DNA of 64,000 nucleotides from Escherichia phage vB_EcoM_EC001. The translations under genes and the position numbers were made by a program. Of this stretch, positions 17,051-53,625 are shown piece after piece. The stretch is taken from the sequence record MN445185.1; one strand, given 5' to 3'. Under the pieces are notes generated by a model. It was not told the DNA's origin. It made no database searches and saw only the letters and a program-made list of their open reading frames with translations. Numbering within the stretch: the first letter of the stretch is position 1; each line of letters opens with the position of its first letter.

Positions 17051-17059
17051 AATAAAAGG

Positions 17060-17096
17060 CTACCCTCTCCTTCGGGAGAGGGTAGTGCTTTTTTTA
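17060..17096. terminator. bidirectional rho-independent terminator between convergent genes
   Basis: CTACCCTCTCC-TTCG-GGAGAGGGTAG hairpin flanked by A-run and T-run. Confidence 0.8.
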
Positions 17097-20054
17097 TTCT
17101 TTTTCGGTATCGTGACGGTTGTACGACAGTACGATGTCATCTTTCAAACCGATGTCGCCATTGGCTTCAATATCGAGCTTCTTACCAATTGTAGCTCGCG
17201 CTGCTTCGGTAATGACAGTGAACAGCCGCAGGTCTTTATCTGGCCCCATATCGTCGAGTTCAACACCGATAATGGCATCGTTAAGCGTATTGCGTAACGC
17301 ATTACCGATCTCGGTTGCTGAAACGGTCAGATGTGTTGACAGATAGTCGTTAATGACTTGCGAAGTCCGTTTCCGGATTTGTGCCAGAAGCTCGCTGTTT
17401 GCACGGTTCGCTGCAGTGAGGTAATATTTGACAGTGAACTGGTTTTCAGCAGGCAACGGTGACACAACCCCGTCTTCGGTACGTACGTCGATATAACCCA
17501 TCGTGGTGATAGGAACAAAGAAGCCTTCAGTTTGCTCCAACAGCAGCGGTTTCAGATTAGGCAGTACCACCGTAACATAGTTGATGATGTTGTCAATTAC
17601 GCTATCAAGGTACGTTTTAACCGCCTTCGAGGTTGCGAACTTATAACGGGCATCAAAGACAGCCATTTCACTACGGAACTTAATACTGCGCGGTTTCGCA
17701 ATAATAGGCTGACCGTTCCCGTCGAAGATTTGCTCCCCAACGTGGTGTGCGATTTCTTGTTCACCGGTGGCCGGGTCTATTTTCGGATCGCCTTTACGAT
17801 GCAGGTACGTGATTTGCAACGGTGGAACAGCATTAGGGTCGTACGTATACTCAGGCGTTACACCGTCGTCTTTGGTTTTAATAACATCCTTTTCCCAATA
17901 CGCCAGAACGTCCTTCTGGTAGTATTCGTAGTTTATGCTGTCCGTTACTGCACGTGCTTTTCGCCAGTAATAGGACATGGCTTTACCCAGCTCGATTTTG
18001 AAAATCTCATGAGTAATCCCAATACCATCGCGCGCAGGTGGTACAATCATTGTATCCATTTCAGCGCGTTCGTAATTACCGGGGTAGTAACCCGTACAGC
18101 CGTAGAACACGTTATACTCGGTTAACAACGGTACCGGAGTATCCACGTCCGCTTCGGTGGTGATTCGGGTGTTGTTGATAATCAGCTCATCGTTACGGTC
18201 AACATCGAGATTGGTTTTCAACAAGAATTCCCATACACGCTCCGAACCTTGACGACCCACTAAGGTGCCGTTGATGTACGCCAACTTACCGTCTGCGTTA
18301 CGCGGCGAGAAGGAAATCTGCGCAAAGACTTGGTCATCACTTAACGCCTGGTACGGCGGTTCTGACTTAGTCACAGTGCGCAGGATATAACCTTCGCTCG
18401 TTTTCTCAATCTGATAATCTGCAGTGACAACACTCAGCTCCGTTGTCACGTTGGTGCTAACGAAACGTTTTGAGTTCAACTGCGGTTTATCGAGTTGGTA
18501 AATACGAACATCGCAAGATTTGTTGTTAATGTCCACCACGTAATGGAACGGCGTGAACAGGTAACGGTTAGTGTTACCCGCGTTAACCAAATCTTCTTTA
18601 CGCATGGTCTTCGCAAGAATGGTCATCTCCGCATCGATTTGCAGACTGGTATCCGTAAAGCGATACAGCGTATCTGGCTCAATTGTCAAACGGTTGCCGT
18701 TAATACGGACCGTCGGCAGTTTCACCAGTTCATCCCAGCTAAAGTACAGCGGGGCGGTGATGGTCCCGATAGGGGAACTCACTTTAGATAACGTGGATTC
18801 CGGCATCGGCGCGGTCAGGAAGTAAGTACGCCCAGTTACGTAATCGTTCGGCTTAGACAAGGTCAGGCCGTAATCCGATACCGTGGCTTCTAACTGCTTC
18901 TCTGTTACTGGCAGTTTGCGAATCCCCACTGCATTGTTTACCACACGGTCACGCAACTCATCAAACGAAAGTTGTGTACGCCCCCCAGTGGCGTAACTGC
19001 CTTCTTCCGCAACCAACATTTTGATGGAGAATGATTTCAACGGGTTGATGTATCCCGCATCGTATTCACCGTTCAAGTCTCGCAATGAGAAGGTGTACTC
19101 GTCCGCCGGAAATGCAGAAACGTCGAGGTCGAGTGGGCCGATGGTCGTATATACGTCCATGCGGATTTCACCACTTACCAGGTTCTTCGCCATGTAGATA
19201 GACGGTATCGTACAGCGAATGGACTGGTTAACGACTTGAATCAGCGCCGTAGGTGTGTTTGGATCGTAAACGTCACGACTGTGCGTGTGGTGGATTTCTG
19301 TCCAGGTGTTTGAATTGGACGGTTTATTCCACACCCGTGCGTAGAAGAACTTGTTGGTGAACGTGCGCGTCATCACAAACGTGTTCTGCCCCAACAACGT
19401 ATCGTTCTCGTCCTTTACACTGTACTGCATCACCGGAATACGGATAGCCAGTATCTGCGACGGTGTGCTAGGAACACTTGTCAGTTCCCAGTCCAACGCG
19501 TTAGTGGTTACGGGCGATATCGGTGACTGGGTTTCGGTAATCCACAAGACCTGGAAGGCTGGATTATCAACGGTACCATACGGCAGCACTCGAATTTCGA
19601 TGGGATACTGAATGGCAAAGTTGTAACCTGAAACAGTAAAGACGGTATCCCGTGGAATCACGACTTTACGAATACCTGCCACGTTTAACGGCATCGCCTT
19701 CGCTAATAGAGAGTCGACATCTAGAAGCAGCAGTAAGGTCGCTTGTGATGGCTGGGCAAAAACATCGACATAATCCACGTCAGACATGTGGCGGAACAGA
19801 TCATCGTGAGTTTGTGCCATAGAGGGGAACATTTTCGGAATGGTGTCCCGATCGCCCTGGATAATCGTGTGGCCCATCGTAATTCCGACTTCGGTCATGT
19901 AGACCACCGGGTCGGTCGGGTCACGTAGCAGGATTTGCCCGTCGGCGTCCTGCACGTCTTGGAGCTGGTTCAGCATTAATGACTGCATTGCTGATGGGTT
20001 ATGTGCCATCAGCAGCAAGTCTTTCGATAATGCGTCGTACGTTTTCGTAGTCAT
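17094..20054 (-). CDS. hypothetical large protein, possibly virion structural (986 aa)
   Basis: Long ORF on minus strand, start overlaps upstream stop. Confidence 0.8.
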   Translation of the reverse strand: MTTKTYDALSKDLLLMAHNPSAMQSLMLNQLQDVQDADGQILLRDPTDPVVYMTEVGITMGHTIIQGDRDTIPKMFPSMAQTHDDLFRHMSDVDYVDVFAQPSQATLLLLLDVDSLLAKAMPLNVAGIRKVVIPRDTVFTVSGYNFAIQYPIEIRVLPYGTVDNPAFQVLWITETQSPISPVTTNALDWELTSVPSTPSQILAIRIPVMQYSVKDENDTLLGQNTFVMTRTFTNKFFYARVWNKPSNSNTWTEIHHTHSRDVYDPNTPTALIQVVNQSIRCTIPSIYMAKNLVSGEIRMDVYTTIGPLDLDVSAFPADEYTFSLRDLNGEYDAGYINPLKSFSIKMLVAEEGSYATGGRTQLSFDELRDRVVNNAVGIRKLPVTEKQLEATVSDYGLTLSKPNDYVTGRTYFLTAPMPESTLSKVSSPIGTITAPLYFSWDELVKLPTVRINGNRLTIEPDTLYRFTDTSLQIDAEMTILAKTMRKEDLVNAGNTNRYLFTPFHYVVDINNKSCDVRIYQLDKPQLNSKRFVSTNVTTELSVVTADYQIEKTSEGYILRTVTKSEPPYQALSDDQVFAQISFSPRNADGKLAYINGTLVGRQGSERVWEFLLKTNLDVDRNDELIINNTRITTEADVDTPVPLLTEYNVFYGCTGYYPGNYERAEMDTMIVPPARDGIGITHEIFKIELGKAMSYYWRKARAVTDSINYEYYQKDVLAYWEKDVIKTKDDGVTPEYTYDPNAVPPLQITYLHRKGDPKIDPATGEQEIAHHVGEQIFDGNGQPIIAKPRSIKFRSEMAVFDARYKFATSKAVKTYLDSVIDNIINYVTVVLPNLKPLLLEQTEGFFVPITTMGYIDVRTEDGVVSPLPAENQFTVKYYLTAANRANSELLAQIRKRTSQVINDYLSTHLTVSATEIGNALRNTLNDAIIGVELDDMGPDKDLRLFTVITEAARATIGKKLDIEANGDIGLKDDIVLSYNRHDTEKE

Positions 20055-21316
20055 TACAGTAAGCCCGCTCGTTTAAGGATGAATTGGTAATCTGCCTGAT
20101 AAACATACCAGGTCAGTTTACGACGCAGGGAGTCGATGTGCGGATAGCCGTAGTAGTTGAACAGCGGTAGTAGCTGTGGTGCAATCGGCACAAGCTGGTC
20201 TTCAGCAATCGGGATAAAGTTGCCCGCTGCAACACTCCCTGGTTGCGGCATCATATCCGGGTTAAACATAGACACCGTCAAGTTGAACATCTCCATGTAC
20301 AATGGGTCATCGAAGCGCGCCCCGATGCATTGCCAGTTGAGGTTAATTGTGGTGTCGTCATTTAATTGAGGCTTGGTGTTATCGACATTCGCCATTTGAC
20401 CGGCGTTATCGTTCATCGGCCAACAAACACACGCTGTCCAGAAACGGGTAATGTTTCCGAGCGCGTCGTATTTAAACCCGTACATCCTTGACTGGTAGTC
20501 GATACGACGTTGGATGGAGTTACGCATCTTCGGTTTGAACTTACCCATTTTAATGCCGGACATATACTCCAGCCACACGCCCATCATTCGCATGATTGGG
20601 TTGCCGTATGGGTTGTTCAGCGACATCGACATGCTGTACTGGTTATTGATTTCATGTGTGGAGTCAACCATACCCCATTGTTCGCGCATTAAACCTTCTT
20701 CAGACATCCAGTTATCGACAGACTGGTCAGGCATCCCCGAGAGGCTCAGCATCTGCGTACTCAGCAATGGTATGAATGCCTGAAGATTGTCAAACATAAT
20801 GTCCTTCATGAATGGCGTGCCCAAACGGTTCTTTCTTCGCCCATCTTCCATCGGTGAATCAGAGAACCCCAATTCAAAATCTGGGTCTAACGCTGCCAGA
20901 ATGGAATAGTCGAGTGACGATTTCGGCTGAGAAGCCATGTTCGACATCTTGCGCGAGTTGGCAATGTTGTCAAAGCACAAGTTGAAGTCAGGGCGGGTAA
21001 TGAAGGTTAGGCCACCGTACTCACGGTTAACAGGCGTCGGGTTCGACGCCATCATATGGTTGAACCCCATGTAGGGGTTGGTCACACGCTGCGCAGCCAG
21101 ACCCAAACCTAACGTAAGACGGATACGGTCATTCCAACCCGATAACTCATCATTAACGTTGTACGCCGTGGTGGGTTTCGCATCGGACAGTCGACGGTCA
21201 AAGTAGTCGGCGACCGATGGTACTGCATCGATATTATTCGGGTTTTGATACGAATTGTCGTAGTCGGTATTCGGGTCATACCCCGGATCGTTCTTATCGG
21301 TCTCGTTACTCATCAT
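20054..21316 (-). CDS. hypothetical protein (420 aa)
   Basis: GGAG SD; first gene of minus-strand operon. Confidence 0.75.
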   Translation of the reverse strand: MMSNETDKNDPGYDPNTDYDNSYQNPNNIDAVPSVADYFDRRLSDAKPTTAYNVNDELSGWNDRIRLTLGLGLAAQRVTNPYMGFNHMMASNPTPVNREYGGLTFITRPDFNLCFDNIANSRKMSNMASQPKSSLDYSILAALDPDFELGFSDSPMEDGRRKNRLGTPFMKDIMFDNLQAFIPLLSTQMLSLSGMPDQSVDNWMSEEGLMREQWGMVDSTHEINNQYSMSMSLNNPYGNPIMRMMGVWLEYMSGIKMGKFKPKMRNSIQRRIDYQSRMYGFKYDALGNITRFWTACVCWPMNDNAGQMANVDNTKPQLNDDTTINLNWQCIGARFDDPLYMEMFNLTVSMFNPDMMPQPGSVAAGNFIPIAEDQLVPIAPQLLPLFNYYGYPHIDSLRRKLTWYVYQADYQFILKRAGLL

Positions 21317-21338
21317 TAACTCCGGAGTTTAGTTAAAA

Positions 21339-22457
21339 ATGGCAGAAAAAACATTTGAGACATCGCTCGTCTCCTTTCTTTCTAAGTTTCCCATGCTGCT
21401 TCGCCAGCGGGCGGAATCGACGGAAGAATTCAACTCTGTGCTGTACAACGAGCACACCACGCTGGTTGAACAAAGTCTGTTGGGCTTAGATTACCTGCCA
21501 GGTATTCTGGAGAAAATCCAAATCCTGCTCGCGGGCAACCAACTTACCGCCATCTCAATTCTGGTAGGTGTTCCTGAGGTTGATATCCTTGGTACGCTTG
21601 ACCAGGTTAGCACCCGTCGTAATGCCCTCGATGCGGCTGCACGTTCGGGTTCTCGCTTAGCGTCTTTCGCAATCGGCGAGTCCTCCCGTCACACGCTGCC
21701 GTCATACGATAAAATCGGGCTTGCGGTCGGTGAATCCCGTCGCCAGAAATCCGATAACAAAGTAGCGACTGAATCATCCGCAGGTTCTGTGCTGCCGAAC
21801 AACACGCTGAAGCTCCTGCACGATCAGGAAGGTCTGTCCAACGGTAAAGTGTTCTCTGTTACCTTCGAACGCGACGGTAATAAAGTCGAGCTGCCGATGC
21901 GTCTGCGTCTTGATGTGAAGTCTCTGCCAACCGATGAAATGAAGACGCTGATTGCGTTCAGCGATCAAACCAAAACCTTCTGGGAACGTGTGCTGCGGGC
22001 GAAGGTCGGTTCTCTCAGCTACGCGAAAGATATCGCGCTGTGTAATGACCTCATTGAAGAATACCGTAAGAACCGCTTCCGTGATAAGTCCGGTTATTAC
22101 CGTAAGATGATGGAAAAGAAAAACGCCAACTGGCTGTCTGGCCTGCTGACGCTGAGCCCATCCATCAACAACGCGTCTTCGGTTATGGTGGTTTCTCAAG
22201 AAACTATCGACGATCTGACTGCTCAGCTGGGCGGAGACTTCGATGATTACAATATCCGCCAGCGTGTGTTCAAAGACACCCTGACTGTTTACTACGTGGT
22301 TGTCGACCAGACCTGGAACCGTGTAACCATTTATACGCGTGGTCAGACCGGGTCTCAGGAACTCGACAAATCAGACTTTAGCAAGGCGAAGTCCGGTAGC
22401 GGCGATGTAAACAAAATCATCGATGCCTATCGCGTCGGCGCGAATCCGGTACTGTAA
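21339..22457 (+). CDS. hypothetical protein (372 aa)
   Basis: Long ORF diverging from the minus operon with only 22 bp between start codons. Confidence 0.7.
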   Translation: MAEKTFETSLVSFLSKFPMLLRQRAESTEEFNSVLYNEHTTLVEQSLLGLDYLPGILEKIQILLAGNQLTAISILVGVPEVDILGTLDQVSTRRNALDAAARSGSRLASFAIGESSRHTLPSYDKIGLAVGESRRQKSDNKVATESSAGSVLPNNTLKLLHDQEGLSNGKVFSVTFERDGNKVELPMRLRLDVKSLPTDEMKTLIAFSDQTKTFWERVLRAKVGSLSYAKDIALCNDLIEEYRKNRFRDKSGYYRKMMEKKNANWLSGLLTLSPSINNASSVMVVSQETIDDLTAQLGGDFDDYNIRQRVFKDTLTVYYVVVDQTWNRVTIYTRGQTGSQELDKSDFSKAKSGSGDVNKIIDAYRVGANPVL

Positions 22458-23423: not shown

Positions 23424-23981
23424 ATGTTTGACAATGACCAGAATTTTAACCTCGCCGAGAAGTTGATTAAAAACTACATGGCGAAACTGACCCAAAACCC
23501 CGTGCTGGTTCATGACGACGAACTGATACATGAAACCCTGGAAGCTGCAGCCGTTGTGCTGCCGTATTTCCGCATGATGGGCGCTGACTCTGTCCAACAA
23601 GTATTATATGACGAATATCCGCAGGTCGGTTTTACGTTTAATACGTTTTATAACGAATCTGCATCGTTCATACTTGACGGTAAACGCCGTACAGTGTCAA
23701 CAGGACAGTGGTCCGTTCTTCTGGTATCGTACATGAACGATATCCACTCTACTAAGCAAGTAGAGCGAACCGGTTCCCTGGGCTCACGACTTCTTGCTGC
23801 GGCTTACGGTCGTAGTGGGCAAGTTCGCCGTATGGGAACTGCGCATCAGACGTACACGCCTGACCGGCGTCTATTATCTTATGCAGACCACGAACTGCTG
23901 GCACGTTGGTTGACACGTCCGAACGGGTTATCCGATATGATCTCGTCGTTAGCAGTGTTTTTAAAAATCGCACGTCCCTAA
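23424..23981 (+). CDS. hypothetical protein (185 aa)
   Basis: AGGAG SD at 23413-23417. Confidence 0.65.
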   Translation: MFDNDQNFNLAEKLIKNYMAKLTQNPVLVHDDELIHETLEAAAVVLPYFRMMGADSVQQVLYDEYPQVGFTFNTFYNESASFILDGKRRTVSTGQWSVLLVSYMNDIHSTKQVERTGSLGSRLLAAAYGRSGQVRRMGTAHQTYTPDRRLLSYADHELLARWLTRPNGLSDMISSLAVFLKIARP

Positions 23982-26720: not shown

Positions 26721-26746
26721 ATTTCAGATATATATTACCTAGGTGA
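26721..26746 (+). promoter_or_regulatory. phage promoter-like motif, class I (ATTTCAGATATATATTACCTAGGTGA)
   Basis: 26/26 identical to 35839..35864; just downstream of a terminator, 43 nt before ATG 26789. Confidence 0.6.
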
Positions 26747-37776: not shown

Positions 37777-37815
37777 CCCTCTTACCTTCGGGTAAGAGGG
37801 TTTTATATTTATTTT
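37777..37815 (+). terminator. rho-independent terminator
   Basis: CCCTCTTACC-TTCG-GGTAAGAGGG hairpin then T-rich run. Confidence 0.8.
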
Positions 37816-37857
37816 CCGAAAAGAAAATAAAAGGCGCTCTCTCCCGAAGGAGAGAGC
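37816..37857 (-). terminator. probable minus-strand rho-independent terminator
   Basis: GCTCTCTCC/GGAGAGAGC hairpin whose loop reads UUCG and whose U-run follows only on the minus strand. Confidence 0.55.
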
Positions 37858-38030: not shown

Positions 38031-38175
38031 CATGAATATTTGCATGGACTAACTGTACCCGAGTGTTCACAGCACTCGGGTTATTCCATGCATATAAATA
38101 GTTCGTCGTATTTTTTTTTGATCTTGGCAGGACGCATAAACTGCCCGTAGGGGAGCTTAGGCTCCCCAGTGTTCG

Positions 38176-39738
38176 TTAGAACAAATCATCACCCATTCCA
38201 CCGGTGAAGAAGTTGATAGACGACGCTGTTACGGTTTCTTCTTTATCACAATCCCAAGGCAGGATGCCAACATCCTGGAAAGGTATCACTGTGTAGTGAT
38301 AAGATTCTTTAGTATCGATAATGGTGCGGTGCTTACCGCGTTGAACTTCTAAGAAGCTATGGCCGTTGACCACACGCTTGTTAAAATACATTTCACCATC
38401 GGCCTCGTTATCAAGGCTCGAACAACTATCGTAAAGACCACGACCAGGTAAGTTCTTACAGAAACCTACCGGGTCTAACGCTTTTAAGCGCTTACCTTCT
38501 GGGGAAATCTGGTGTGGGGCAATTAAGAACCCACGGTTGCGTACCACTTGGATGTTACGAGCAATACGATAAATTTCTTTGATATCACTCCCGGCAATAC
38601 CGTTGCCGTGTCCTGCTTTGCTGATTGTGCCTAAGTAGTCTGCGCGAATGCCAACAACATGATAACCGCGACGACGTAAGTCGAGAATAAGGTCGTTGAT
38701 GTAGTGCACTTTAAAATCGGAGTTGGTGTGCTTTTGGAAAACGTAGTCCCAACCGTTTGCGCGAATCTTACCACAGAGGTAATCAGACATTGCTGTTGTG
38801 TGTGCTAACTTCTCTTCAGCGGTTGCATCCTGTGCAATGGTCATCTGTGGAACTTGTCCTTCAAAATGACCGTACAGTGCTTGATAGCCGTAAGCTAAGT
38901 TAACGTCGAGTTCGTTTTCTAAACTCAAGTCAAGAATAATTGGTTGCAGTGTGCCCTTCACATCCGCCATTACTTTCTCAGGCGTGTTGAAGATAGGAAT
39001 CGACAAGCTCAGTAAGAGACTGAACAAAGACTTACAGTTAAAAGGTAACGCCGGCATTAGCCACAGTTCTTCGGTAATCCCTTTGTTACAACCGAGCATT
39101 TGGTTAATGGCTTTCCAGCCCGTCTGCAAACCATTACCTGCTGCTTTCTTGTTAATCGAGTCGAACACTTTAACAAACGGAGCCCGATTATCTGTAACCA
39201 GCTCACCGACCAGCGATGGAATCTTATTATGAGAGCGTTCACCGAACGTAGATAGCGCCTCTTTGAGTTCGAGCACTGCGGTGTTCAGATCAACACGTGT
39301 CTCAGTTCCATTCAATGCTCCGAACGCGCGACCCATTTTTGTTTTGAGTTCGACGCTCTGTAAACATTGACGTAATTGGAAATAATATTGAGACAGTTGT
39401 CGATTAAGATGCTCGGTACGTTTGTCTTCTTCCTCGGGCAAATCGTCTTCGAGGAATTTGGTAATCGTATCGTATAGAGGACGTACTTGAGTGGTGGCCA
39501 GCTTCAAGCGCTTCATAACGCTCGCGTGGTCGTATTCCATGCCGCCGTCTATGATAGATGTGATAATGTCCTTGATCTCGATGAGTGCAAAGCGCTCTTC
39601 GCCATCTTCCGCATATTCCGGAAGCTTGATCTGCATCAGAACTTTTCTTATGACATCATGATCCTTGCTAGGGTCCGTCAGCATAGATTCTGTATACAGT
39701 GCGGCTAAGGCGGTTATCAACATCATTTTACTATTCAT
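38176..39738 (-). CDS. hypothetical protein (520 aa)
   Basis: Long ORF; AAGGA SD on minus strand; hydrophobic N-terminus. Confidence 0.75.
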   Translation of the reverse strand: MNSKMMLITALAALYTESMLTDPSKDHDVIRKVLMQIKLPEYAEDGEERFALIEIKDIITSIIDGGMEYDHASVMKRLKLATTQVRPLYDTITKFLEDDLPEEEDKRTEHLNRQLSQYYFQLRQCLQSVELKTKMGRAFGALNGTETRVDLNTAVLELKEALSTFGERSHNKIPSLVGELVTDNRAPFVKVFDSINKKAAGNGLQTGWKAINQMLGCNKGITEELWLMPALPFNCKSLFSLLLSLSIPIFNTPEKVMADVKGTLQPIILDLSLENELDVNLAYGYQALYGHFEGQVPQMTIAQDATAEEKLAHTTAMSDYLCGKIRANGWDYVFQKHTNSDFKVHYINDLILDLRRRGYHVVGIRADYLGTISKAGHGNGIAGSDIKEIYRIARNIQVVRNRGFLIAPHQISPEGKRLKALDPVGFCKNLPGRGLYDSCSSLDNEADGEMYFNKRVVNGHSFLEVQRGKHRTIIDTKESYHYTVIPFQDVGILPWDCDKEETVTASSINFFTGGMGDDLF

Positions 39739-39752
39739 GGAGCATCCTTAAA

Positions 39753-40277
39753 ATGCAAATTCGTTTTAGTCCACCGTGGGAAGTTCAATCTAACATAGAT
39801 AAAGGGGCTGGCGTTAAAAAGTTGGAGGAACTCCAAGCAAGCTTCTTTAACTGGTTATATGACTGCTCGTCGGGCTTTAGTTCCATCATACTGCCAGTGA
39901 GTGACCCTATTTCGATTTATAAATCGATTATGGCACCACCTGCACTTCCGACTCTTTATTATGACCAGGTCTTAAACCTGGTTGAGAAAGGTACGAATGA
40001 AACCCTTGCTGATTTATATGGGGAATCATTCGACGGTCGTTTACGTTGGGTGTTCTCACAACGTGGCGATGTTGTTGTGGCGTCTTTTGCAGAAGCTAAA
40101 TCCGGACCGGGTTTTTCTTTAAGTGAAGACCACGCTGCGAAAAAGATGTTCTGCGCAGAACTTTTTAAATATATGCGTCCCAAGACTCGTGTCGTGGATG
40201 ATACGTTCAGTACGTCGACGCAGTTTGCTGCGCACGAAGTGCTGACGCAGTTGTACGCATGTCATTTATCTAAATAA
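39753..40277 (+). CDS. hypothetical protein (174 aa)
   Basis: ATG 39753 is 14 bp from the divergent minus-strand start; the track start 39699 overlaps that gene. Confidence 0.65.
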   Translation: MQIRFSPPWEVQSNIDKGAGVKKLEELQASFFNWLYDCSSGFSSIILPVSDPISIYKSIMAPPALPTLYYDQVLNLVEKGTNETLADLYGESFDGRLRWVFSQRGDVVVASFAEAKSGPGFSLSEDHAAKKMFCAELFKYMRPKTRVVDDTFSTSTQFAAHEVLTQLYACHLSK

Positions 40278-40289
40278 GGTAAACTTGAA

Positions 40290-42590: not shown

Positions 42591-42620
42591 TAATCCGTAA
42601 GGATTACGTTGCCTAAGATT

Positions 42621-42659
42621 AGCTTACTCCCTTCGGGGAGTAAGCTTTTTCTTTTTTTC
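42621..42659 (+). terminator. rho-independent terminator
   Basis: AGCTTACTCCC-TTCG-GGGAGTAAGCT hairpin then long T-run. Confidence 0.85.
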
Positions 42660-42670
42660 TAAAAATTTAT

Positions 42671-42693
42671 AGATAGATATTATCTTAGGGAGA
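42671..42693 (+). promoter_or_regulatory. phage promoter-like motif, class II (AGATAGATATTATCTTAGGGAGA)
   Basis: Related copies at 42869 and 63176; directly downstream of a terminator. Confidence 0.6.
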
Positions 42694-42725
42694 GAGTCAT
42701 TCGGTTTTAACTTAAGGAGACAGTA

Positions 42726-42809
42726 ATGGAAGTCAATTTAGAGAGATCAAGACTAGTTGCACCGATGTTTGATGGGCGCGGTTTTATGGCGAACGGTCAC
42801 CACGTTTGA
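42726..42809 (+). CDS. possible leader peptide (27 aa)
   Basis: TAAGGAGA SD 6 nt upstream; sits between two promoter motifs and is followed by a hairpin. Confidence 0.3.
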   Translation: MEVNLERSRLVAPMFDGRGFMANGHHV

Positions 42810-42832
42810 TACCCTAAAGTTTTTTACGTTAA

Positions 42833-42857
42833 GGGCACTGGGTATGAACCCGTGCCC
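42833..42857 (+). other. stable hairpin without U-tract (GGGCAC...GTGCCC)
   Basis: 10-bp stem with one bulge, loop ATGA; between the small ORF and the second promoter motif. Confidence 0.5.
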
Positions 42858-42868
42858 AAAGTAATCTG

Positions 42869-42889
42869 AGATAGATATTATCTACGTGA
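42869..42889 (+). promoter_or_regulatory. phage promoter-like motif, class II variant (AGATAGATATTATCTACGTGA)
   Basis: 15/15 identical core with 42671; 33 nt upstream of ATG 42923. Confidence 0.55.
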
Positions 42890-42922
42890 ATAATTCTTTT
42901 GGTATTATTACTGGGATGTTCA

Positions 42923-43938: not shown

Positions 43939-45717
43939 GTGTTTAAAGATGCGATTAGGAAGATTAAAGAGGCAGGCGAAATAGTGCCTTTTAATCGTGC
44001 AATTGCAGAAGGAGTTGGGTACACACAAGCTAAAGACGGGATACATGATCGTGTGGCAACCATTCTACGTCGTGAGTTGACGTATGATGAAATCGATAAC
44101 CCGAAATTACCAGAAGGGTTAACGGTATTAGGTTGTCGCCAAATGTCGCCGTTTGAAGCTTTTATCTTTAAGTTATCGAAGTCGGATAACAATTCACGAA
44201 ATAATCGTGGCCGGTCAATTATTAACATCTCATCCACTGATACGTATATGGTAATGGCCTCGTTCCGAGTTCCAGGCGATCCTCGCCCGGTGCAACGACC
44301 AATGAGCTTACCATTTATTCGTCGTGGCGGCTTAATGAACTACTACGGTACAACGTACCACGTAGCACCTGTAATCCACCAACCTGGTATTTGTCGTGAG
44401 CACGGTGGTATCTTTATTAACTTTGACTTCACCCGCAAGGTGTCTATCAAGTTCTGTAAGAAACCAACGAAGATTCTGGTGAATGGTCGCCCTGAGCAGC
44501 TGTTCTTGCCAGGTACATCGAATCTGTTTGTCTCAACCGGACAGATTGGACACGACACCGATGAGAAGCCGTTGATGTATTGGCTCTTCGGGCGCTACGG
44601 CTTTAAACAAGCTGTGAAGCGTTATGCGGGTGTTGATGTGGCGATTTGGCCAGCGATTAAAGTACGTGATGTGGACTTAACGAAGTATGTGGTGATTCAG
44701 TCCGGTGAGCCACAACTCGCGAAGACCATCCAGTACGTACTGTTGGTTAAACGTGAAGATATGCCTAACACCGATGCAGGGCGTTGGGATCAGAATGAAC
44801 ATCTGTTGCTGGTAGCGACTGCCGCATTCTTCAAAGCAGCGCACTACTACGCAGGTAAACAGAACAGTAAGAACGGTCGTGCACCAACACTGCCGGGGCT
44901 GTTTACACAGATTAACGAAATGGCAATGGACGAAGATATTGCGAACCTCAATTCTGCAGCCTCCTGGCGCGAAGTGTTGGGTCGTAGTATTCGCGGACTG
45001 AAGCCTTCGGATATCGAACTGAGTCGCAGTATGGACAGCCACTTCCAGGAATGTGAACGCTATGTCAACAGCACCTTCCGTGGTGAGCTGATGGCAAACG
45101 ATCCGTCCATCCCTGATGATTTGGATATGTTTGATTTCCTCTGGTACACCACGCAGCTGATGGTGCGTACTCGTCTTACCAAACAAGATGATATTCCGTC
45201 TATGTACGGAAAACGTCTCACGGTAACCGATTACTTACTGTTGGGCCAACGTGGCTTTACCACAACGATCTCGAAAATACGTTGGAAGCTGGGGCAGTTG
45301 GAACATCGGACTCCAGAGACAGCGGCGAAGTCTATTCGAGACGCACTGAACAAACAGATCGTGCTCAATCTGGTGATGCGCACCATTACGAGCAACGGCG
45401 GTATCAGTTTCTTCAATGCCTCTACAGAATCAATGGTATTGGCAGTGTCTACGCACGCCATCGGTCAAACCGAAACCGATGCTAAGCGTTCGAAGAAAGG
45501 AGGCAAGACCGTTAACTTGAACGACCGTACTAAGCACGCATCTGCGTCGCATCTGGAATGTGGTAACGTCTACTATATTCCTAAGTCGGCACCGTTTAAG
45601 GCAAACATCCTCAACCCGTACATGAAGACCAACCCAAGTTTGGTAATGATGCGGAACCCTAAACTGGACCCGTACATCAGACCGACCGAAGAAGACATTG
45701 CTAAAATCGGCCGCTAA
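43939..45717 (+). CDS. hypothetical protein (592 aa)
   Basis: GTG start with GAGGGAGG SD 5 nt upstream. Confidence 0.75.
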   Translation: MFKDAIRKIKEAGEIVPFNRAIAEGVGYTQAKDGIHDRVATILRRELTYDEIDNPKLPEGLTVLGCRQMSPFEAFIFKLSKSDNNSRNNRGRSIINISSTDTYMVMASFRVPGDPRPVQRPMSLPFIRRGGLMNYYGTTYHVAPVIHQPGICREHGGIFINFDFTRKVSIKFCKKPTKILVNGRPEQLFLPGTSNLFVSTGQIGHDTDEKPLMYWLFGRYGFKQAVKRYAGVDVAIWPAIKVRDVDLTKYVVIQSGEPQLAKTIQYVLLVKREDMPNTDAGRWDQNEHLLLVATAAFFKAAHYYAGKQNSKNGRAPTLPGLFTQINEMAMDEDIANLNSAASWREVLGRSIRGLKPSDIELSRSMDSHFQECERYVNSTFRGELMANDPSIPDDLDMFDFLWYTTQLMVRTRLTKQDDIPSMYGKRLTVTDYLLLGQRGFTTTISKIRWKLGQLEHRTPETAAKSIRDALNKQIVLNLVMRTITSNGGISFFNASTESMVLAVSTHAIGQTETDAKRSKKGGKTVNLNDRTKHASASHLECGNVYYIPKSAPFKANILNPYMKTNPSLVMMRNPKLDPYIRPTEEDIAKIGR

Positions 45718-47785: not shown

Positions 47786-48088
47786 ATGGTAAAGTTCATT
47801 GTTGTCAACATGGATTTTGAGCGTAGTGTGCGTTTTCGCTTTGAGTTACCTGAAAACAAAGCGACTGAAGCTTTCTTAGCCGACTTCCACAAAGCCAAAA
47901 CAGCGATCAGTCATGGACGTCGCTGGCAAATCTTCTATAACGCCCGTAAAGGCCTCCTGAAGGCGTTAAAAGCAGCAAAGGATACAAAGGTATTGGAAAA
48001 GCTAGAACCTTTCCAGAACGACCCTCTGGCGATTGGTATCATGCTCGACGAACTGGTTAATAAACCCAAAGCTGCTACAGAAGATTAA
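47786..48088 (+). CDS. hypothetical protein (100 aa)
   Basis: GAGG SD; followed by bidirectional terminator. Confidence 0.6.
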   Translation: MVKFIVVNMDFERSVRFRFELPENKATEAFLADFHKAKTAISHGRRWQIFYNARKGLLKALKAAKDTKVLEKLEPFQNDPLAIGIMLDELVNKPKAATED

Positions 48089-48148
48089 AAAAAGAAAAGG
48101 TACCTCTCCCCGAAGGGAGAGGTAAACCTTATTTCTTTTTCTTTTTTT
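48089..48148. terminator. bidirectional rho-independent terminator between convergent genes
   Basis: TACCTCTCCC/GGGAGAGGTA hairpin flanked by A-run and T-run. Confidence 0.85.
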
Positions 48149-48150
48149 GT

Positions 48151-50895
48151 TTAGAGGACGTTGTCTGGGTTGTCGTCGGTAGTTCCTTCACCACCTTCTG
48201 TGCCTTCCGTTCCCTCGGTAGTTGTTTCCGTGGTTTCGGTCGACTCAGTCGTTTCCCCTGTACTATCCCCGTCGGTTCCGTTATCCGTATCGAAATCGAG
48301 GTCTAAATCATCGTCACCCCCACCACCGAGATCTCCTTCGCCACCACCGGTGTCACCGCCCGCATCAAAACCACCGCTGAATCCGCCAGCAGATTCGTTA
48401 GGGTCAAGGTCAGCATTTTTCGCCAACGTTTCCAGACGACCTGTAAAACGTTTCGCCAACTGAATCAGCGTCTTCGAAGCAGCCATCGCTTCATCAGTCA
48501 TCATGGTGATGTTGTCTTGACGAGATTTATCGTCGTAAACCAGATCGAAGAAGTCAGTTTCAATGCCTTGTTTACGCAGCCAGTTGCGCGTATAGAAGGA
48601 TTTGATCATCGTCTTCAGATCGTTCGGGTCCATCGAGATGCCTTCTTGCTGGAGTTGCGCAGCAATGTCATCCGTTACAACCAGATCAGCCAGCTTCTCA
48701 AAGAACTCCGTACGTTTATCGAACAGCTCCATCTGCGAAGCTGCTGCAGAGGTGTCTGGCGGTGGTAAGGTTACTTTCATACCGTTGATAAACGCAGCCA
48801 GGTACTCAGAGACCTTTTTCGTAATCTGGTCAGTAGTCATCCCATTGCCGTTAGCATTGATATACTCTGCAATGATTTTAATCATCGCTGATTGCAACGA
48901 CGGGGAGGCCAACATCCCATTAACTACGTAACGTGTCAGTGGCTTAGAGAGAATCTCTTGCTTCTTAACAACTTGTTGCGTGACCAGCAACGATTTAGAG
49001 AAAATCTGTGAAGCGAATTCGATGTTCTCGGGGGTCATTACCAGGTCGGGGTCAACGCCAGCGATGTGACAAGTGCGACGTAACAGACCTTCGTCGAAAT
49101 CCTTATCCGGGTATTTATAATCCGGCGTAGTATCCGACACAGACACTTTGGTACTACCGTAGTAGTCGTTACCAATAACGTTAAACGCAATACCTGCGTT
49201 TGTCGTCATTGCCCAGGTGTCGTTCATGTCCCCCCACATCGGTTGACGACGGTTATAGGAGTTCATGATGTCTGTTTTCAGCTGGTCAATTGTTTTCTGA
49301 CCGTTCATGTCGTCTGGTGCCAACTCAATGTCGTACTGCATGTGACGTGCAGAGTTCAACACCGCAGAGTTCATGGTAGCGAACAACAGCGCCATACGGA
49401 CAGTAGAGATAACGAACGAGCGTTCGGTAATAGACACACCGATACCATCTTCATCAAAGTCCGTGGCAAAATAGCAAAGGTTTTCCGCAGGAATATAGAT
49501 AACCTGCGTGTGGCGTTTTGCCAGATGGCGCGCCAGCATGATACGGCTGAACGTTTCGGTTACCGTCATGCTAATCTCAGCACCACCCAACGCCTCACCC
49601 AACGCTTTTGTCAGCTGGTCTTCAGCAATCTCACCATAACGCGCTGTTAAGCGGTTAGCAATGTCTGGTGTGATTCGGGTTGTGTTGCCCATCCCCAGAT
49701 TCGCGCGGTTGATTGTCGAATCTACCATACCGTCGTTGTTCAGGTAGTTCATGAAGTTCGCATCCCCGTAAAGTGTGGAACGCGAGTTAATGAAGTTACC
49801 CATTTCGTCAACGATGGCCAGATAACCTATGGGGTTACGAACATCGTCACCGATAACGAGTGGGAGTGTGGACTCTGCTGGCAGTAATCGTTCCGTGTAT
49901 TCGATTTTGTTGGCATCGGAGAAACTCATCTTCGGTACTTCGCCGTAAAGCTTTTGCTCAGGCGTTTTCTGGTACGCTTCGTTGAGGTCGCCGATGTTGA
50001 TTAAACCGAGTTTTGCCTTCTCTTGTTCACTGTCTGTGAACTGGTCAGCGTTATACTCTGACGCACCTGTCGGCGTAGAAGGTTGTTCATATGCGTACTG
50101 CTCTAACTGACCGAACAGGCCGGTGCGAGCATTCTCCTGTGCTACACGGCGATAAGCCTCCGGTAGCAGGGTAATACGCGGGTTGTCGGTGATAACGATA
50201 TCCAGGGAAGCTAACATACCGTCTGCTTTAAACGGACTGTTAGGGGCTGCTGCAAAGTTAAGTTTAATGGTTTGTGGCTTGGTGGGCTTGTCAGCTCCAC
50301 GTGCACGACCCAGAATACTTTCTACACCAACCTTCGGTTTGTTCTCACCACCAATCTTGCCTAAAATACCCAACTGACGTTCAAAGAAGTCAGATTGGCT
50401 ACGGCGCAACGATTCGGTTGCAACAGACGGCTTTAAGCCGAAGAGTTCATCGAATCCGGTATCTGAAATCAGCAACACCGGGCTCGCGCCTTTGGATTTC
50501 AGTGCATCGTAAATCCACTGATACAGTTTGTTGGGTAACTGGCGCGTGTGGTCATGGAATTCACGCACAGGTTCCAACAACTGTTGACGCAGGTCGATCG
50601 GGATATCAGCCACGTTGTCGTAAATCAGCGTGGTGTTAATCAAATCTTTTGTGGACAGGAGTGAGGAGGTCGCGATGGTAACAATGACCTCTAACTCAGG
50701 GAGCGCATCAAAGATACGTTCGGCATTTTTAACGGTGCGAATGCGGCTACTCGCAATGCCCGTGAGTTCTGTACGGGTTGGTGTAACGCCACCATCTTCA
50801 CGCTTACCGCGTTGCTGCTGAGCCGACGGGCTCGTGGACTTACGCAGTATGGCAGCTACCGCGGGGTCGCCCGTTAATTTACTAATATCTTCCAT
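48151..50895 (-). CDS. hypothetical large protein with acidic Gly/Asp/Thr/Glu-rich C-terminal tail, possibly virion structural (914 aa)
   Basis: Long ORF; GGAG SD on minus strand. Confidence 0.8.
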   Translation of the reverse strand: MEDISKLTGDPAVAAILRKSTSPSAQQQRGKREDGGVTPTRTELTGIASSRIRTVKNAERIFDALPELEVIVTIATSSLLSTKDLINTTLIYDNVADIPIDLRQQLLEPVREFHDHTRQLPNKLYQWIYDALKSKGASPVLLISDTGFDELFGLKPSVATESLRRSQSDFFERQLGILGKIGGENKPKVGVESILGRARGADKPTKPQTIKLNFAAAPNSPFKADGMLASLDIVITDNPRITLLPEAYRRVAQENARTGLFGQLEQYAYEQPSTPTGASEYNADQFTDSEQEKAKLGLINIGDLNEAYQKTPEQKLYGEVPKMSFSDANKIEYTERLLPAESTLPLVIGDDVRNPIGYLAIVDEMGNFINSRSTLYGDANFMNYLNNDGMVDSTINRANLGMGNTTRITPDIANRLTARYGEIAEDQLTKALGEALGGAEISMTVTETFSRIMLARHLAKRHTQVIYIPAENLCYFATDFDEDGIGVSITERSFVISTVRMALLFATMNSAVLNSARHMQYDIELAPDDMNGQKTIDQLKTDIMNSYNRRQPMWGDMNDTWAMTTNAGIAFNVIGNDYYGSTKVSVSDTTPDYKYPDKDFDEGLLRRTCHIAGVDPDLVMTPENIEFASQIFSKSLLVTQQVVKKQEILSKPLTRYVVNGMLASPSLQSAMIKIIAEYINANGNGMTTDQITKKVSEYLAAFINGMKVTLPPPDTSAAASQMELFDKRTEFFEKLADLVVTDDIAAQLQQEGISMDPNDLKTMIKSFYTRNWLRKQGIETDFFDLVYDDKSRQDNITMMTDEAMAASKTLIQLAKRFTGRLETLAKNADLDPNESAGGFSGGFDAGGDTGGGEGDLGGGGDDDLDLDFDTDNGTDGDSTGETTESTETTETTTEGTEGTEGGEGTTDDNPDNVL

Positions 50896-50906
50896 TGGGG
50901 TCTCCG

Positions 50907-53090
50907 ATGCAGAGATTTAACATTTTTCGTGACCAGGCTATCCAGTTAGCGAAATCCCTGATTGTCAAATCAGAGAGCATCGCACAACAGATGAACCTGG
51001 CAATAACCAAAAACGGCGGTTTCGTTTCCGAGAACCGTGAGACGTGGCGGTATTACCTACACTTAGCAGGTAAACGACATGCAATCGACAAGCCGATATA
51101 CATTACGTCACTCGACACGCAAGAGCAGATAGAGTTAACGACGCAGAACCTCTCCCGTCATAAAAAGACCTCAAACGTATATCGTTCTAACCCGGAGTAT
51201 ATCGACGACTTAATCGCCGAGTATCCGGACTACGCAGTATATATTCGAGGCACTTTCAATCCGATTGATATTGCATACGCGATACGTGTCGATGACTGCT
51301 CAATTTTGTATTACGATCCTGCTTTAGTTGAACCGCAGGAGACGTCGTTAATTACACATATTGAGAACTTTATTCGTGCGGCACATGTGCGGTTCATGGC
51401 CGATGGCTGGAAAGTTCACAACGACTGTTTCGTACTGGCCTTTTACATGCAACAGTACCCGGTGTGGCCGGGGCTTATCATGTACATCCGCAAACGGTTA
51501 CAGTTTACGACCGAAACGCACTCCTACTACGTGACCGAGTTCTTGGCTTCACACCAAGAACTGCACGAGTTCATGCCGTACCTGACCCTCAAGCAGAAAT
51601 TCACACTGTATCGCAATATCCGTTACTGGGAACGTAACTCTGGTAAGGAAGAAATCTTTACCTGGATGATTGACACCCTGCTGACGGGTTGGGGTATGCC
51701 TGCTGTTGGATATAAGGTCGCCCAGCAGATTCACGACCCGACGACGGGCAGTGATGATGACCTGACACCACTCCCGATCGGCTACCAGTCATCGCTTAAC
51801 TATACTGAACGTGACTCGGGTCGTGACCTGGACATTGTTAGCACAACTGACATCATCCGGAAAGAAATCAATCTGGCGTACAATAACCCAGTGCACGAAC
51901 CTGACTATCAGGAAGACCTCGATCGGCGTTTGAGCTTGACGCAGTATCCGAACCTGCCAACGAAGTTAGTTGAGGTAACGGCGATTGACCCAGAGGCCAT
52001 CGAACGTTGGGAATTTATGCATGGCTTGTTCAACGAGTGGATGCATATCGTGGCACGTGGACAGTACAACATTTACCACGAAATTCTTAACCCAACGAAC
52101 GGGGATACGCTAAAGCTCACTTCAAAAGAGCTGCTGGCACTGTTCTTGTATGCGAGCTTCAAAGGTTATTCTGGCGTAGCACTGGATAAGATCCCGGTGT
52201 GGAACGTGTTTGGTGTGTTAATCAAACGCTGGGTTGGTTTTGATGAGATGGAGCAGTATCTGCCAAGCTCATGGCCCGGTCGTTTTAATGCGTTGATTAA
52301 CTATTACACGGACACGCATCATGAAGTTATCGGTAATTTGACGTCTGCAGATGAGTTGTACGATGAAATCAGCGAAATCATGGTGCAGAAGCGTCGTCGT
52401 TACCGTTACTCGTATAATCGACACAAGCTAGCCGACCGTGCTGCCGGCACAATGTTGTTTACCTACCACTACCGTGACTATAAGTGCGATCTTGACCTAC
52501 CTTACCGCGATTACGACGAGTTCTTCAAAACGTTTGGTTTTGATTACAAGTTAGTCTCCGCGGAAACCTGGCAGGACATCGCCACCGACGCTTTAAACGT
52601 GGCCACTAATCTGGAAACACGTGCGTCTGTCTCACAAGCTGAAATACAACGCGCGATGGTGCGGTTAATGACGAAACTCTCGTCGTATACTGTCCATTTT
52701 GCCGCACGTATGGGTTCTGACACCTACGATGTCACCGACCCAGTCATCCCGATTCTGGATGATATTCTCGCAGAGGCTGCCGATACAACAAATATCATTT
52801 ACCCTCTGACAGACGTGCAGCGTGTGAGCCGTAGTTCATTCATGACGACGGATAAGCCCATCCCTGTCGCTCCCGTGATAAAGGAAATGGCAATCCCGCA
52901 ACGTATTAAGTTGCGGATGAATGTCTACCCTGGTATCCGCGTGAAGGTCGAGCAGGATGTTGTGGTCGATATGGTACAGCCGCCTATTGATATTATCCGT
53001 GTGCGGACGTCATTTGAGGAGTGGACGCTTGCCGAGCGCGTGGCCGACCGTGACATGGATGGCTTCCGGTTAGACCAATTACCAAAGTGA
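50907..53090 (+). CDS. hypothetical protein (727 aa)
   Basis: First in-frame ATG (the track start 50895 is a TTG that overlaps the divergent start codon). Confidence 0.8.
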   Translation: MQRFNIFRDQAIQLAKSLIVKSESIAQQMNLAITKNGGFVSENRETWRYYLHLAGKRHAIDKPIYITSLDTQEQIELTTQNLSRHKKTSNVYRSNPEYIDDLIAEYPDYAVYIRGTFNPIDIAYAIRVDDCSILYYDPALVEPQETSLITHIENFIRAAHVRFMADGWKVHNDCFVLAFYMQQYPVWPGLIMYIRKRLQFTTETHSYYVTEFLASHQELHEFMPYLTLKQKFTLYRNIRYWERNSGKEEIFTWMIDTLLTGWGMPAVGYKVAQQIHDPTTGSDDDLTPLPIGYQSSLNYTERDSGRDLDIVSTTDIIRKEINLAYNNPVHEPDYQEDLDRRLSLTQYPNLPTKLVEVTAIDPEAIERWEFMHGLFNEWMHIVARGQYNIYHEILNPTNGDTLKLTSKELLALFLYASFKGYSGVALDKIPVWNVFGVLIKRWVGFDEMEQYLPSSWPGRFNALINYYTDTHHEVIGNLTSADELYDEISEIMVQKRRRYRYSYNRHKLADRAAGTMLFTYHYRDYKCDLDLPYRDYDEFFKTFGFDYKLVSAETWQDIATDALNVATNLETRASVSQAEIQRAMVRLMTKLSSYTVHFAARMGSDTYDVTDPVIPILDDILAEAADTTNIIYPLTDVQRVSRSSFMTTDKPIPVAPVIKEMAIPQRIKLRMNVYPGIRVKVEQDVVVDMVQPPIDIIRVRTSFEEWTLAERVADRDMDGFRLDQLPK

Positions 53091-53097
53091 GAGACTT

Positions 53098-53625
53098 ATG
53101 GGATACCGTATAGATTTATCAAAAACCCCGAAACAGATTCTGGTTGAGAGAATCAATTACGTTTTTAAGTTATCGTATAGTGAAAATAACTACGAGTTTA
53201 ACCCACGTGGGGTGTGGCCGTTAACCCAAGCAGAGCGACGCGCTAAAGGTGTGGAGTCTAAAGTTGCGGCGCGCTTTGTAAATGGGGTACACGGCACTCA
53301 AGAGTTTTACCTGACTCGTGCGGACTTAAACAAGTTACTTAAAGACGTAACGGTTGAAGTCCCGAAGGGTGCGGCAGAATGGAGCCATGAATTAGTTCCG
53401 TATATTGTCGATGAGCTGGGTCTCCAGCTTGACACCTACGATATCATGGTTGAACCGATTACCCCGGAAATGGAATCGTATGAGGCGCGCTTAATCCCGC
53501 ACCATCTATCTTTCAAAGGCACGATTGCGATTACTTTTGTTGACCCAACTCCCCGTAAGCTGGCGCAGCTGGTAACTAAACGGGCACTCGACGGGTTTCG
53601 CCCAGGAGAATTTTTAAATGGCTAA
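53098..53625 (+). CDS. hypothetical protein (175 aa)
   Basis: Tightly packed operon member. Confidence 0.65.
   Translation: MGYRIDLSKTPKQILVERINYVFKLSYSENNYEFNPRGVWPLTQAERRAKGVESKVAARFVNGVHGTQEFYLTRADLNKLLKDVTVEVPKGAAEWSHELVPYIVDELGLQLDTYDIMVEPITPEMESYEARLIPHHLSFKGTIAITFVDPTPRKLAQLVTKRALDGFRPGEFLNG

Follow-up and report, generated by a model that had tools for sequence, protein, structure and literature searches.

Tight head-to-head gene junctions in a SPN3US-like jumbo phage and candidate phiKZ-type promoters within the partner genes

Introduction

Classical bidirectional promoters, symmetric ones included, lie in the spacer that two divergent genes share. Excludon-type loci, found in Listeria and other bacteria, consist of overlapping divergent units with long antisense 5' untranslated regions. 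The late promoters of phage T4 are built on a minimal TATAAATA element of the -10 type and often lie inside upstream genes; to our knowledge, T4 is not noted for tight head-to-head gene pairs in which each gene harbours the other's promoter in antisense. Here we analyse three tight divergent gene junctions, J1, J2 and J3, in a stretch of 64,000 nucleotides (nt) from Escherichia phage vB_EcoM_EC001 (record MN445185.1; the whole stretch is called the window below). Judging from conservation among relatives, we consider it likely that these junctions are compacted head-to-head transcription units whose promoters, TATG motifs of the type used by phage phiKZ, are embedded in the open reading frames (ORFs) of the partner genes.

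Salmonella jumbo phages of the SPN3US group match a 5.2-kb query across J3 (48000-53200) at 97.5-98.3% identity, and by this similarity the window is that of a SPN3US-like jumbo phage (Seoulvirus), related to phiKZ. We use the original SPN3US gene numbers, and the gene calls in the window agree with the SPN3US RefSeq annotation. A fourth tight junction of SPN3US, J4, lies outside the window. The comparison genomes are annotated GenBank relatives; the six lineages referred to throughout are SPN3US, SPAsTU, ChrisDB, pSal-SNUABM-04, Wellington and CR5, which represent four genera with about 50-75% protein identity.

Late promoters of phiKZ read T(-3)ATG(+1), and middle promoters add AAanTTACc at about -24 (PMC4666361, citing Ceyssens 2014; PMC7598289). 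The tetranucleotide is read as single-stranded DNA by gp123, a beta-like subunit of the non-virion RNA polymerase (nvRNAP), in which Phe151 stacks on G+1 and the TATG-binding pocket includes His185, His331, Tyr399 and Tyr406 (PMC12809450). The phage group studied here resembles phiKZ in that TATG is over-represented 30-60 nt ahead of genes and is joined by a TTTAC element at -24..-19, that a homologous polymerase is encoded, including a gp123-like subunit, and that the motif is short enough to fit within an ORF. The resemblance extends to synteny at J2, where the gp74-like gene corresponds, by position alone, to phiKZ gene 119, both lying between the helicase and major head protein genes. In phiKZ, however, the spacer between the helicase gene and gene 119 measures 211 nt and holds the model late promoter P119L, whereas here it is 11-14 nt; unlike P119L, the candidate J2 promoters, known from sequence alone, lie inside the helicase and gp74 ORFs.

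The other known systems are matched in part as well. As in excludons, divergent neighbours would have their promoters beyond each other's start and mutually antisense 5' regions, the overlap being a predicted one. Unlike excludons, transcription would be by a phage polymerase inside a phage nucleus, and in three of the four pairs both genes are structural, and presumably late, instead of opposing each other in function. Common to T4 late promoters are a very short promoter, a phage-modified or phage-encoded transcription apparatus, dense packing and promoters within ORFs, although the polymerase and the motif differ. The phiKZ promoter type, embedded promoters and overlapping divergent units are already known as concepts. 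New are comparative data suggesting that a TATG code operates in SPN3US-like phages, and the finding that conserved antisense TATGs mark exactly the genes at tight head-to-head junctions.

Results

Tight junctions are conserved, and their spacers hold paired ribosome-binding sites

An earlier note on this DNA had put the divergent start codons 11 base pairs (bp) apart at J3, 14 bp at J2 and 22 bp at J1. The coordinates confirm the first two (J3: minus start CAT 50893-50895, plus ATG 50907, gap 11 nt; J2: starts 39738 and 39753, gap 14 nt), and both junctions are tight in the six lineages. The J1 figure stands when counted from the first ATG of the ATGATG doublet that opens gp49 (starts 21316 and 21339), but of the two ATGs relatives conserve just the second (21311-21313; protein MSNET...), which alone is also well placed, 6 nt from its Shine-Dalgarno sequence (SD), so that the J1 spacer is likely 25 nt, as in the SPN3US annotation. 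Among the six lineages the spacers span 21-29 nt at J1, 11-14 nt at J2 and 11-15 nt at J3. Since these spacings are kept across four genera, the tight arrangement is not a product of chance. Phages phiKZ and PA7 (35 nt) and Goslar (27 nt) likewise have a divergent, closely spaced portal/gp82 pair. The SPN3US genome has 17 real divergent junctions, with spacers of 11, 14, 25, 29, 57, 63, 66, 67, 70, 72, 76, 98, 124, 163, 180, 206 and 280 nt.

Three upstream starts were rejected, in-frame conservation being absent in relatives: TTG 50895; GTG 39699, which is the opening codon of the longest ORF of the J2 plus gene; and ATG 39737-39739, which overlaps the helicase start codon. Because the frame is lost in relatives, the TTG and the ATG over the helicase start are not real starts.

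The claim that each gene's SD lies inside the partner's first codons proved wrong, as both SDs are within the spacer at all three junctions. The J1 palindrome reads aCTCCGGAGt, and ACTCCGGAGT in that spacer is identical across seven genomes. The J2 core GGAGCATCCTT carries GGAG (39739-39742) for gp74 and AAGGATG (minus strand, 39743-39749) for the helicase, and the J3 core GGGGTCTCC carries GGGG (50897-50900) for gp82 and GGAGA (minus strand, 50901-50905) for the portal. These back-to-back SDs are near-invariant across genera, where flanking codons diverge, and at all six start codons a conserved SD stands 5-11 nt away. Within their 11-25 nt, the spacers hold two ribosome-binding sites and nothing more. 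Unlike classical bidirectional promoters, the J1-J3 spacers contain no TATG, which leaves no shared bidirectional promoter region there. Nor do leaderless mRNAs fit J1-J3, where the SDs are conserved and no TATG abuts any start codon.

The tight spacing might in principle be an annotation artefact, with one partner starting downstream or being no gene at all; the helicase has in-frame ATGs at codons 5-6, and the J1 minus gene has its two adjacent ATGs. Yet all six junction genes have family-wide homologues, PHROG and Pfam profiles align from about residue 1 in all six proteins, and N-terminal codons with correctly spaced SDs are conserved in seven genomes. Peptides of the portal N-terminal propeptide have been detected by mass spectrometry (PMC5694885). 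Moreover, a move to the nearest downstream ATGs would give spacers of no more than 25-29 nt, still below 30 nt. An artefact is therefore highly improbable, and N-termini, SD spacing and profile coverage favour the annotated starts over the downstream start that the earlier note had held out as its alternative.

Antisense TATG is conserved in the genes that flank the junctions

We aligned 19 orthologous genes (8,545 codons) from the six lineages by codon and scored a tetranucleotide copy as conserved when it was identical in all six. Sense CATA, which is TATG on the antisense strand, ranked first of 255 tetramers, eight of its 27 copies being conserved; conservation was 3.9% over all tetramers and 16.5% for the runner-up. 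All eight conserved copies fall in the six junction-flanking genes, at least one per gene and each aimed at the partner, whereas none of the 10 CATA copies in the other 13 genes is conserved (Fisher test, junction genes versus the rest, p = 0.011). From a baseline specific to gene and codon phase, 0.85 conserved copies were expected against the eight observed (P = 3e-7). The conserved sites sit in blocks of 10-36 nt with frozen synonymous positions, in which the rare codons Ile ATA, Arg AGA and Ser TCA are fixed in six of six lineages. At portal offset 802, CR5 swaps Ala to Ser and nevertheless retains the CATA nucleotides.

The candidate promoters are listed in Table 1. At J1, ttatcgTATGacgg around 21703-21706 is kept in all lineages, the Ser codon TCA in six of six. 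At J2, all lineages have cttttctTATGac at the 39649 site, where the codons Ile ATA, Arg AGA and Val GTC do not vary. On the opposite strand, the helicase TATG (minus strand 39797-39794) stands 59 nt upstream of the helicase ATG, and the element AACTTTTTAAC (39823-39813) places TTTAACG at -24..-18, matching the TTTTACG logo at six of seven positions. The candidate helicase promoter alone combines the -24 element with TATG in the manner of the middle class, conserved in the six lineages, and this signature suits the helicase as a replication gene. The exact AACTTTTTAAC is not a repeated motif genome-wide; the relevant signal is the looser TTTAC-N15-TATG. At J3, three IMG/VR relatives retain both sites, and at the homologous gp128/gp129 junction of phiKZ a predicted TATG stands 110 nt upstream of gp129. 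A nearer TATG for gp82 (50848-50851, -59) was downgraded as a promoter, being present only in the SPN3US lineage.

Some further features were noted in the same genes. An invariant hairpin, CGTTC-ACC-GAACG (39236-39248), directly follows the TATG at 39228-39231, and the segment 39228-39249 belongs to a stretch of 36 nt within the helicase gene where synonymous conservation is complete; the hairpin could be a 5' stabilising stem-loop of a late transcript. Sense TATGs kept in the six lineages occur on the plus strand at 23607-23610, 23880-23883, 39960-39963 and 40017-40020. They sit in small genes that directly precede two genes for very abundant proteins, the internal head protein gene (24038) and the capsid gene (40290). 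In five of six lineages a AACTTTTTAAA-TATG element stands about 118 nt before the capsid ATG, at about 40172. These sites are probably internal booster promoters.

Table 1. Positions of genes, spacers, candidate promoters and terminators in the window (offsets are relative to the start codon of the gene served)
Feature	Position	Strand	Basis
J1
gp48-like virion structural protein, second gene of the minus-strand island	17094..20054	-	ORF, SPN3US annotation
gp49-like, tail-tube-like protein (Pfam Phage_TTP_15); conserved start ATG 21311-21313	20054..21313	-	Profiles, relatives
gp50-like virion structural protein; opens plus-strand run	21339..22457	+	ORF, SPN3US annotation, profile
Spacer; palindrome CTCCGGAG at 21320-21327 gives GGAG to both genes	21314..21338	.	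Relatives, coordinates checked
Candidate gp50-operon TATG, -284, antisense in gp49 codons 83-91	21055..21058	+	Same position in 6 lineages, synonymous conservation
Second conserved TATG for gp50, -568	20771-20774	+	Conservation
Candidate gp49/gp48-operon core (CATA on plus), about -390, inside gp50	21703..21706	-	Conservation
Bidirectional intrinsic terminator closing the island	17059..17086	.	12-bp stem, T-runs on both strands
J2
DnaB-like replicative helicase (SPN3US gp73)	38176..39738	-	Pfam divDNAB 1e-124; PHROG profile from residue 1
gp74-like small protein, directly upstream of major capsid gene	39753..40277	+	Annotation, profile
Major capsid protein gene (gp75)	40290-42590	+	SPN3US annotation
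Spacer GGAGCATCCTTAAA	39739..39752	.	Near-identical in 7 genomes
Candidate late TATG for gp74/capsid operon, -104, antisense in helicase codons about 29-30	39649..39652	+	Conservation
Second conserved TATG for gp74/capsid, -525	39228-39231	+	Conservation
Candidate middle-type helicase promoter, within gp74 codons 9-24	39794..39823	-	Kept in all lineages
Terminator just before helicase-island 3' end	38150..38167	+	Intrinsic terminator
Further terminator near helicase island	37777-37800	+	
Further terminator near helicase island	37836-37857	-	
J3
Portal protein (SPN3US gp81), long N-terminal propeptide	48151..50895	-	Annotation, profile, mass spectrometry (PMC5694885)
gp82-like virion structural protein, homologue of phiKZ gp128	50907..53090	+	Annotation, profile, homologues
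Spacer TGGGGTCTCCG	50896..50906	.	Comparison of relatives
Candidate portal promoter core, -267, inside gp82	51159..51162	-	ggtyttytTATG in 6 lineages and three IMG/VR relatives
Candidate gp82 promoter core, -817, inside portal codons	50090..50093	+	Conservation
Bidirectional intrinsic terminator closing the island	48101..48124	.	10-bp stem, T-runs on both strands
Elsewhere
Homologue of phiKZ gp123, TATG-binding nvRNAP subunit	43939..45717	+	BLASTP E = 1e-22
AGATAGATATTATCT copies	42671-42685, 42869-42883	+	Variants at 26726, 35844, 63175

TATG behaves genome-wide as expected of a promoter signal

Besides the gp123 homologue (Table 1), other RNA polymerase beta genes are annotated in the genome. 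In a pairwise alignment with gp123 at only 22% identity, Phe151 aligns with Phe, Ser402 aligns, Tyr406 stands opposite Trp, and His185/Asn186 are not aligned. Compared with synonymous-codon shuffles, SPN3US coding sequence has TATG as its third most depleted tetramer (0.66x) and CATA as its sixth (0.55x), and TATG is enriched at -30..-40 from start codons (22 observed versus 5.3 expected). The 46 intergenic TATG sites of SPN3US yield a TTTTAC logo at -24..-19, the published position of the phiKZ middle-promoter element (PMC4666361, PMC7598289), and intergenic TTTAC-N15-TATG sites keep their position in the six lineages where the surrounding sequence has diverged. Several features expected of nvRNAP promoters were found together: an upstream TATG at all six junction genes, a gp123 homologue, and genome-wide avoidance of the motif in ORFs with enrichment upstream of genes. 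In the same shuffles GATC showed the strongest depletion of all tetramers (0.47x), followed by AATT (0.55x), and the SD-like GAGG and GGAG were depleted as well, which suggests Dam or restriction-site avoidance and one unexplained avoidance of AATT.

The earlier note had proposed a search for promoter-like motifs 100-200 bp inside each gene. No host-type signal emerged, as the counts of sigma-70 -35/-10 hexamers around J1, J2 and J3 equal the shuffled expectation; phage-type TATGs were found, at -59 to -817, several of them farther in than proposed. The sigma-70 result fits phiKZ, whose transcription does not depend on the host polymerase (PMC7598289).

Several points weigh against assigning promoter function to the embedded TATGs. 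TATG alone is insufficient for nvRNAP initiation in vitro (PMC4666361), and 32 phiKZ start sites (about a fifth) lack a recognisable motif, so that unrecognised promoters nearer the junctions are possible. Several predicted leaders measure 267-817 nt, versus the 31-40 nt typical of phiKZ, and the sole conserved TATG for gp82 lies 817 nt upstream. At two of the conserved sites the sequence is CATATG beside Met codons, where synonymous freedom amounts to one His or Tyr codon, and the six lineages are not fully independent samples. A literature search for a SPN3US transcriptome found no paper, and the embedded promoters are inferred from conservation.

Some of these points would suit a model in which the promoters are embedded but are not the TATGs, the real ones being motif-less or of an unknown class and nearer the junction. 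CATA would then owe its conservation to protein or codon constraint, antisense regulatory RNAs, pause sites or a DNA-binding protein. Besides the motif-less phiKZ start sites, this model can draw on helicase codons 1-8 beside J2, which are synonymously conserved without a TATG, and on those conserved sites that adjoin invariant Met codons. It is hard to reconcile with the gene- and phase-specific baseline, with the CATA that survives Ala to Ser in CR5 and with the rare codons fixed in all lineages; moreover, the orientation and gene distribution of the sites match exactly what embedded TATG promoters predict, and the prediction held at J4 (below). We therefore regard promoters other than the TATGs as unlikely. 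The constraint on helicase codons 1-8 (39715-39738) deserves mention in its own right: of the six lineages only CR5 departs from the synonymous positions that the other five share, and ATTTTAC stands there on the plus strand. It could reflect the gp74 leader or its translation initiation, or an unrecognised promoter element.

Terminators and packed genes leave little room for distant promoters

Strong terminators close the far ends of the minus-strand islands (Table 1), which makes plus-strand read-through into these islands unlikely, and to the right of each junction lie kilobases of tightly packed plus-strand genes. With no room in the spacers, terminators at the island ends and packed genes beyond, the promoters must lie inside ORFs. 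The earlier note had left two options, promoters within coding sequence or initiation far upstream; the former is supported by spacers filled with SDs, terminators that block read-through and conserved TATGs in the partner ORFs.

Initiation far upstream would mean that no local promoters exist, that long read-through from distant intergenic promoters bypasses the terminators by antitermination, and that the TATGs are unrelated. The predicted leaders are already long, possible antitermination has been discussed for 201phi2-1, and a gap of 308 nt with promoters follows the capsid gene (42590-42899). However, strong bidirectional terminators stand exactly at the island ends, and for the minus genes the nearest gaps of more than 50 nt to the right are 2.8-4.8 kb off and would need minus-oriented promoters, whereas the early motif in gaps right of the junctions is plus-oriented. 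Read-through would also leave unexplained why conserved antisense TATGs are confined to junction-flanking genes. We thus consider it quite unlikely.

The early motif is the strongly conserved, AT-rich AGATAGATATTATCT, of which SPN3US has 14 intergenic copies, usually 40-70 nt upstream of genes; presumably it represents the consensus for early promoters, served by the virion RNA polymerase, in this phage group. In the gap that follows the capsid gene, two copies adjoin a TTTAC-N15-TATG site, and no copy occurs near J1-J3. Within the predicted gp49 leader, at gp50 codons 7-12, a hairpin GAGAC-N7-GTCTC followed by a T-run (21357-21373, minus strand) was noted. Its stem persists, with G-U changes, in CR5, pSal-SNUABM-04 and ChrisDB; the hairpin may act as an attenuator or may arise by chance from the ETS..VS codons. 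A 715-aa ORF (40266-42413, minus strand) runs opposite the major capsid gene, where the window is richest in G+C; it is annotated in no relative and is almost certainly spurious. An Rfam search of the whole window matched no family.

A fourth junction and wider spacers

J4 (SPN3US 212327/212357) opposes a tail fibre gene to a virion RNA polymerase beta gene, and its spacing in Asesino, Kwan, Machina and CR5 ranges from 23 to 32 nt. As an out-of-sample test, it showed a conserved TATG at about -300 for the plus gene and about -1313 for the minus gene in five of five lineages. In wider divergent spacers of SPN3US both TATGs lie inside the spacer, as in classical bidirectional promoters, and are sometimes palindromic. 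Two such palindromes of opposed TATGs, CATACTATG (back to back, SPN3US 158704-158712) and TATGTTATCATA (6-nt overlap, SPN3US 238186-238197), look like symmetric bidirectional promoters. Because wider spacers hold their paired TATGs internally, the tight junctions appear as the extreme end of a continuum.

Discussion

The conservation of antisense TATGs points to a mechanism in which the phage's own multisubunit nvRNAP would transcribe the middle and late genes from promoters pushed beyond the partner's start codon and written as antisense TATG in the partner ORF. At about 4-12 nt, the motif is short enough for an ORF to tolerate such a promoter. Transcription would start 59-817 nt upstream of each start codon, and the 5' regions of the paired mRNAs would be mutually antisense over roughly 143 nt (J2), 650 nt (J1) and 1070 nt (J3). 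If the predicted start sites are used, the units therefore overlap head to head, and each leader is antisense to the partner's ribosome-binding site. The bidirectional terminators at the far ends would insulate the minus-strand islands from plus-strand read-through.

Whether the mutual embedding also serves as a conserved regulatory device, an excludon-like switch in a nucleus-forming phage, is a more speculative matter, and we hold it to be possible but doubtful. If so, each 5' leader would face, in antisense, both the ribosome-binding site and the opening codons of the partner. At J2 the helicase mRNA, of the middle class, would be silenced by the abundant late transcript of gp74/capsid, by way of polymerase collision, RNA duplex formation or both, and at the portal and tail-tube junctions the balance between the paired structural operons would be set by the overlap.

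Since the tetramer alone does not suffice in vitro, the embedded sites bear on the question of what makes a TATG a real nvRNAP promoter in jumbo phages: with their constrained flanks of 10-36 nt, they would provide specific, testable examples. They predict exact start sites and antisense overlaps of 0.14-1.1 kb at four essential loci, namely the portal, the capsid operon/helicase, the tail-tube-like gene and the virion RNA polymerase/tail fibre pair. At such loci, recoding, amber-mutant design or antisense-oligomer knock-down within the first few hundred bases of a gene may also hit the promoter or leader of its neighbour.

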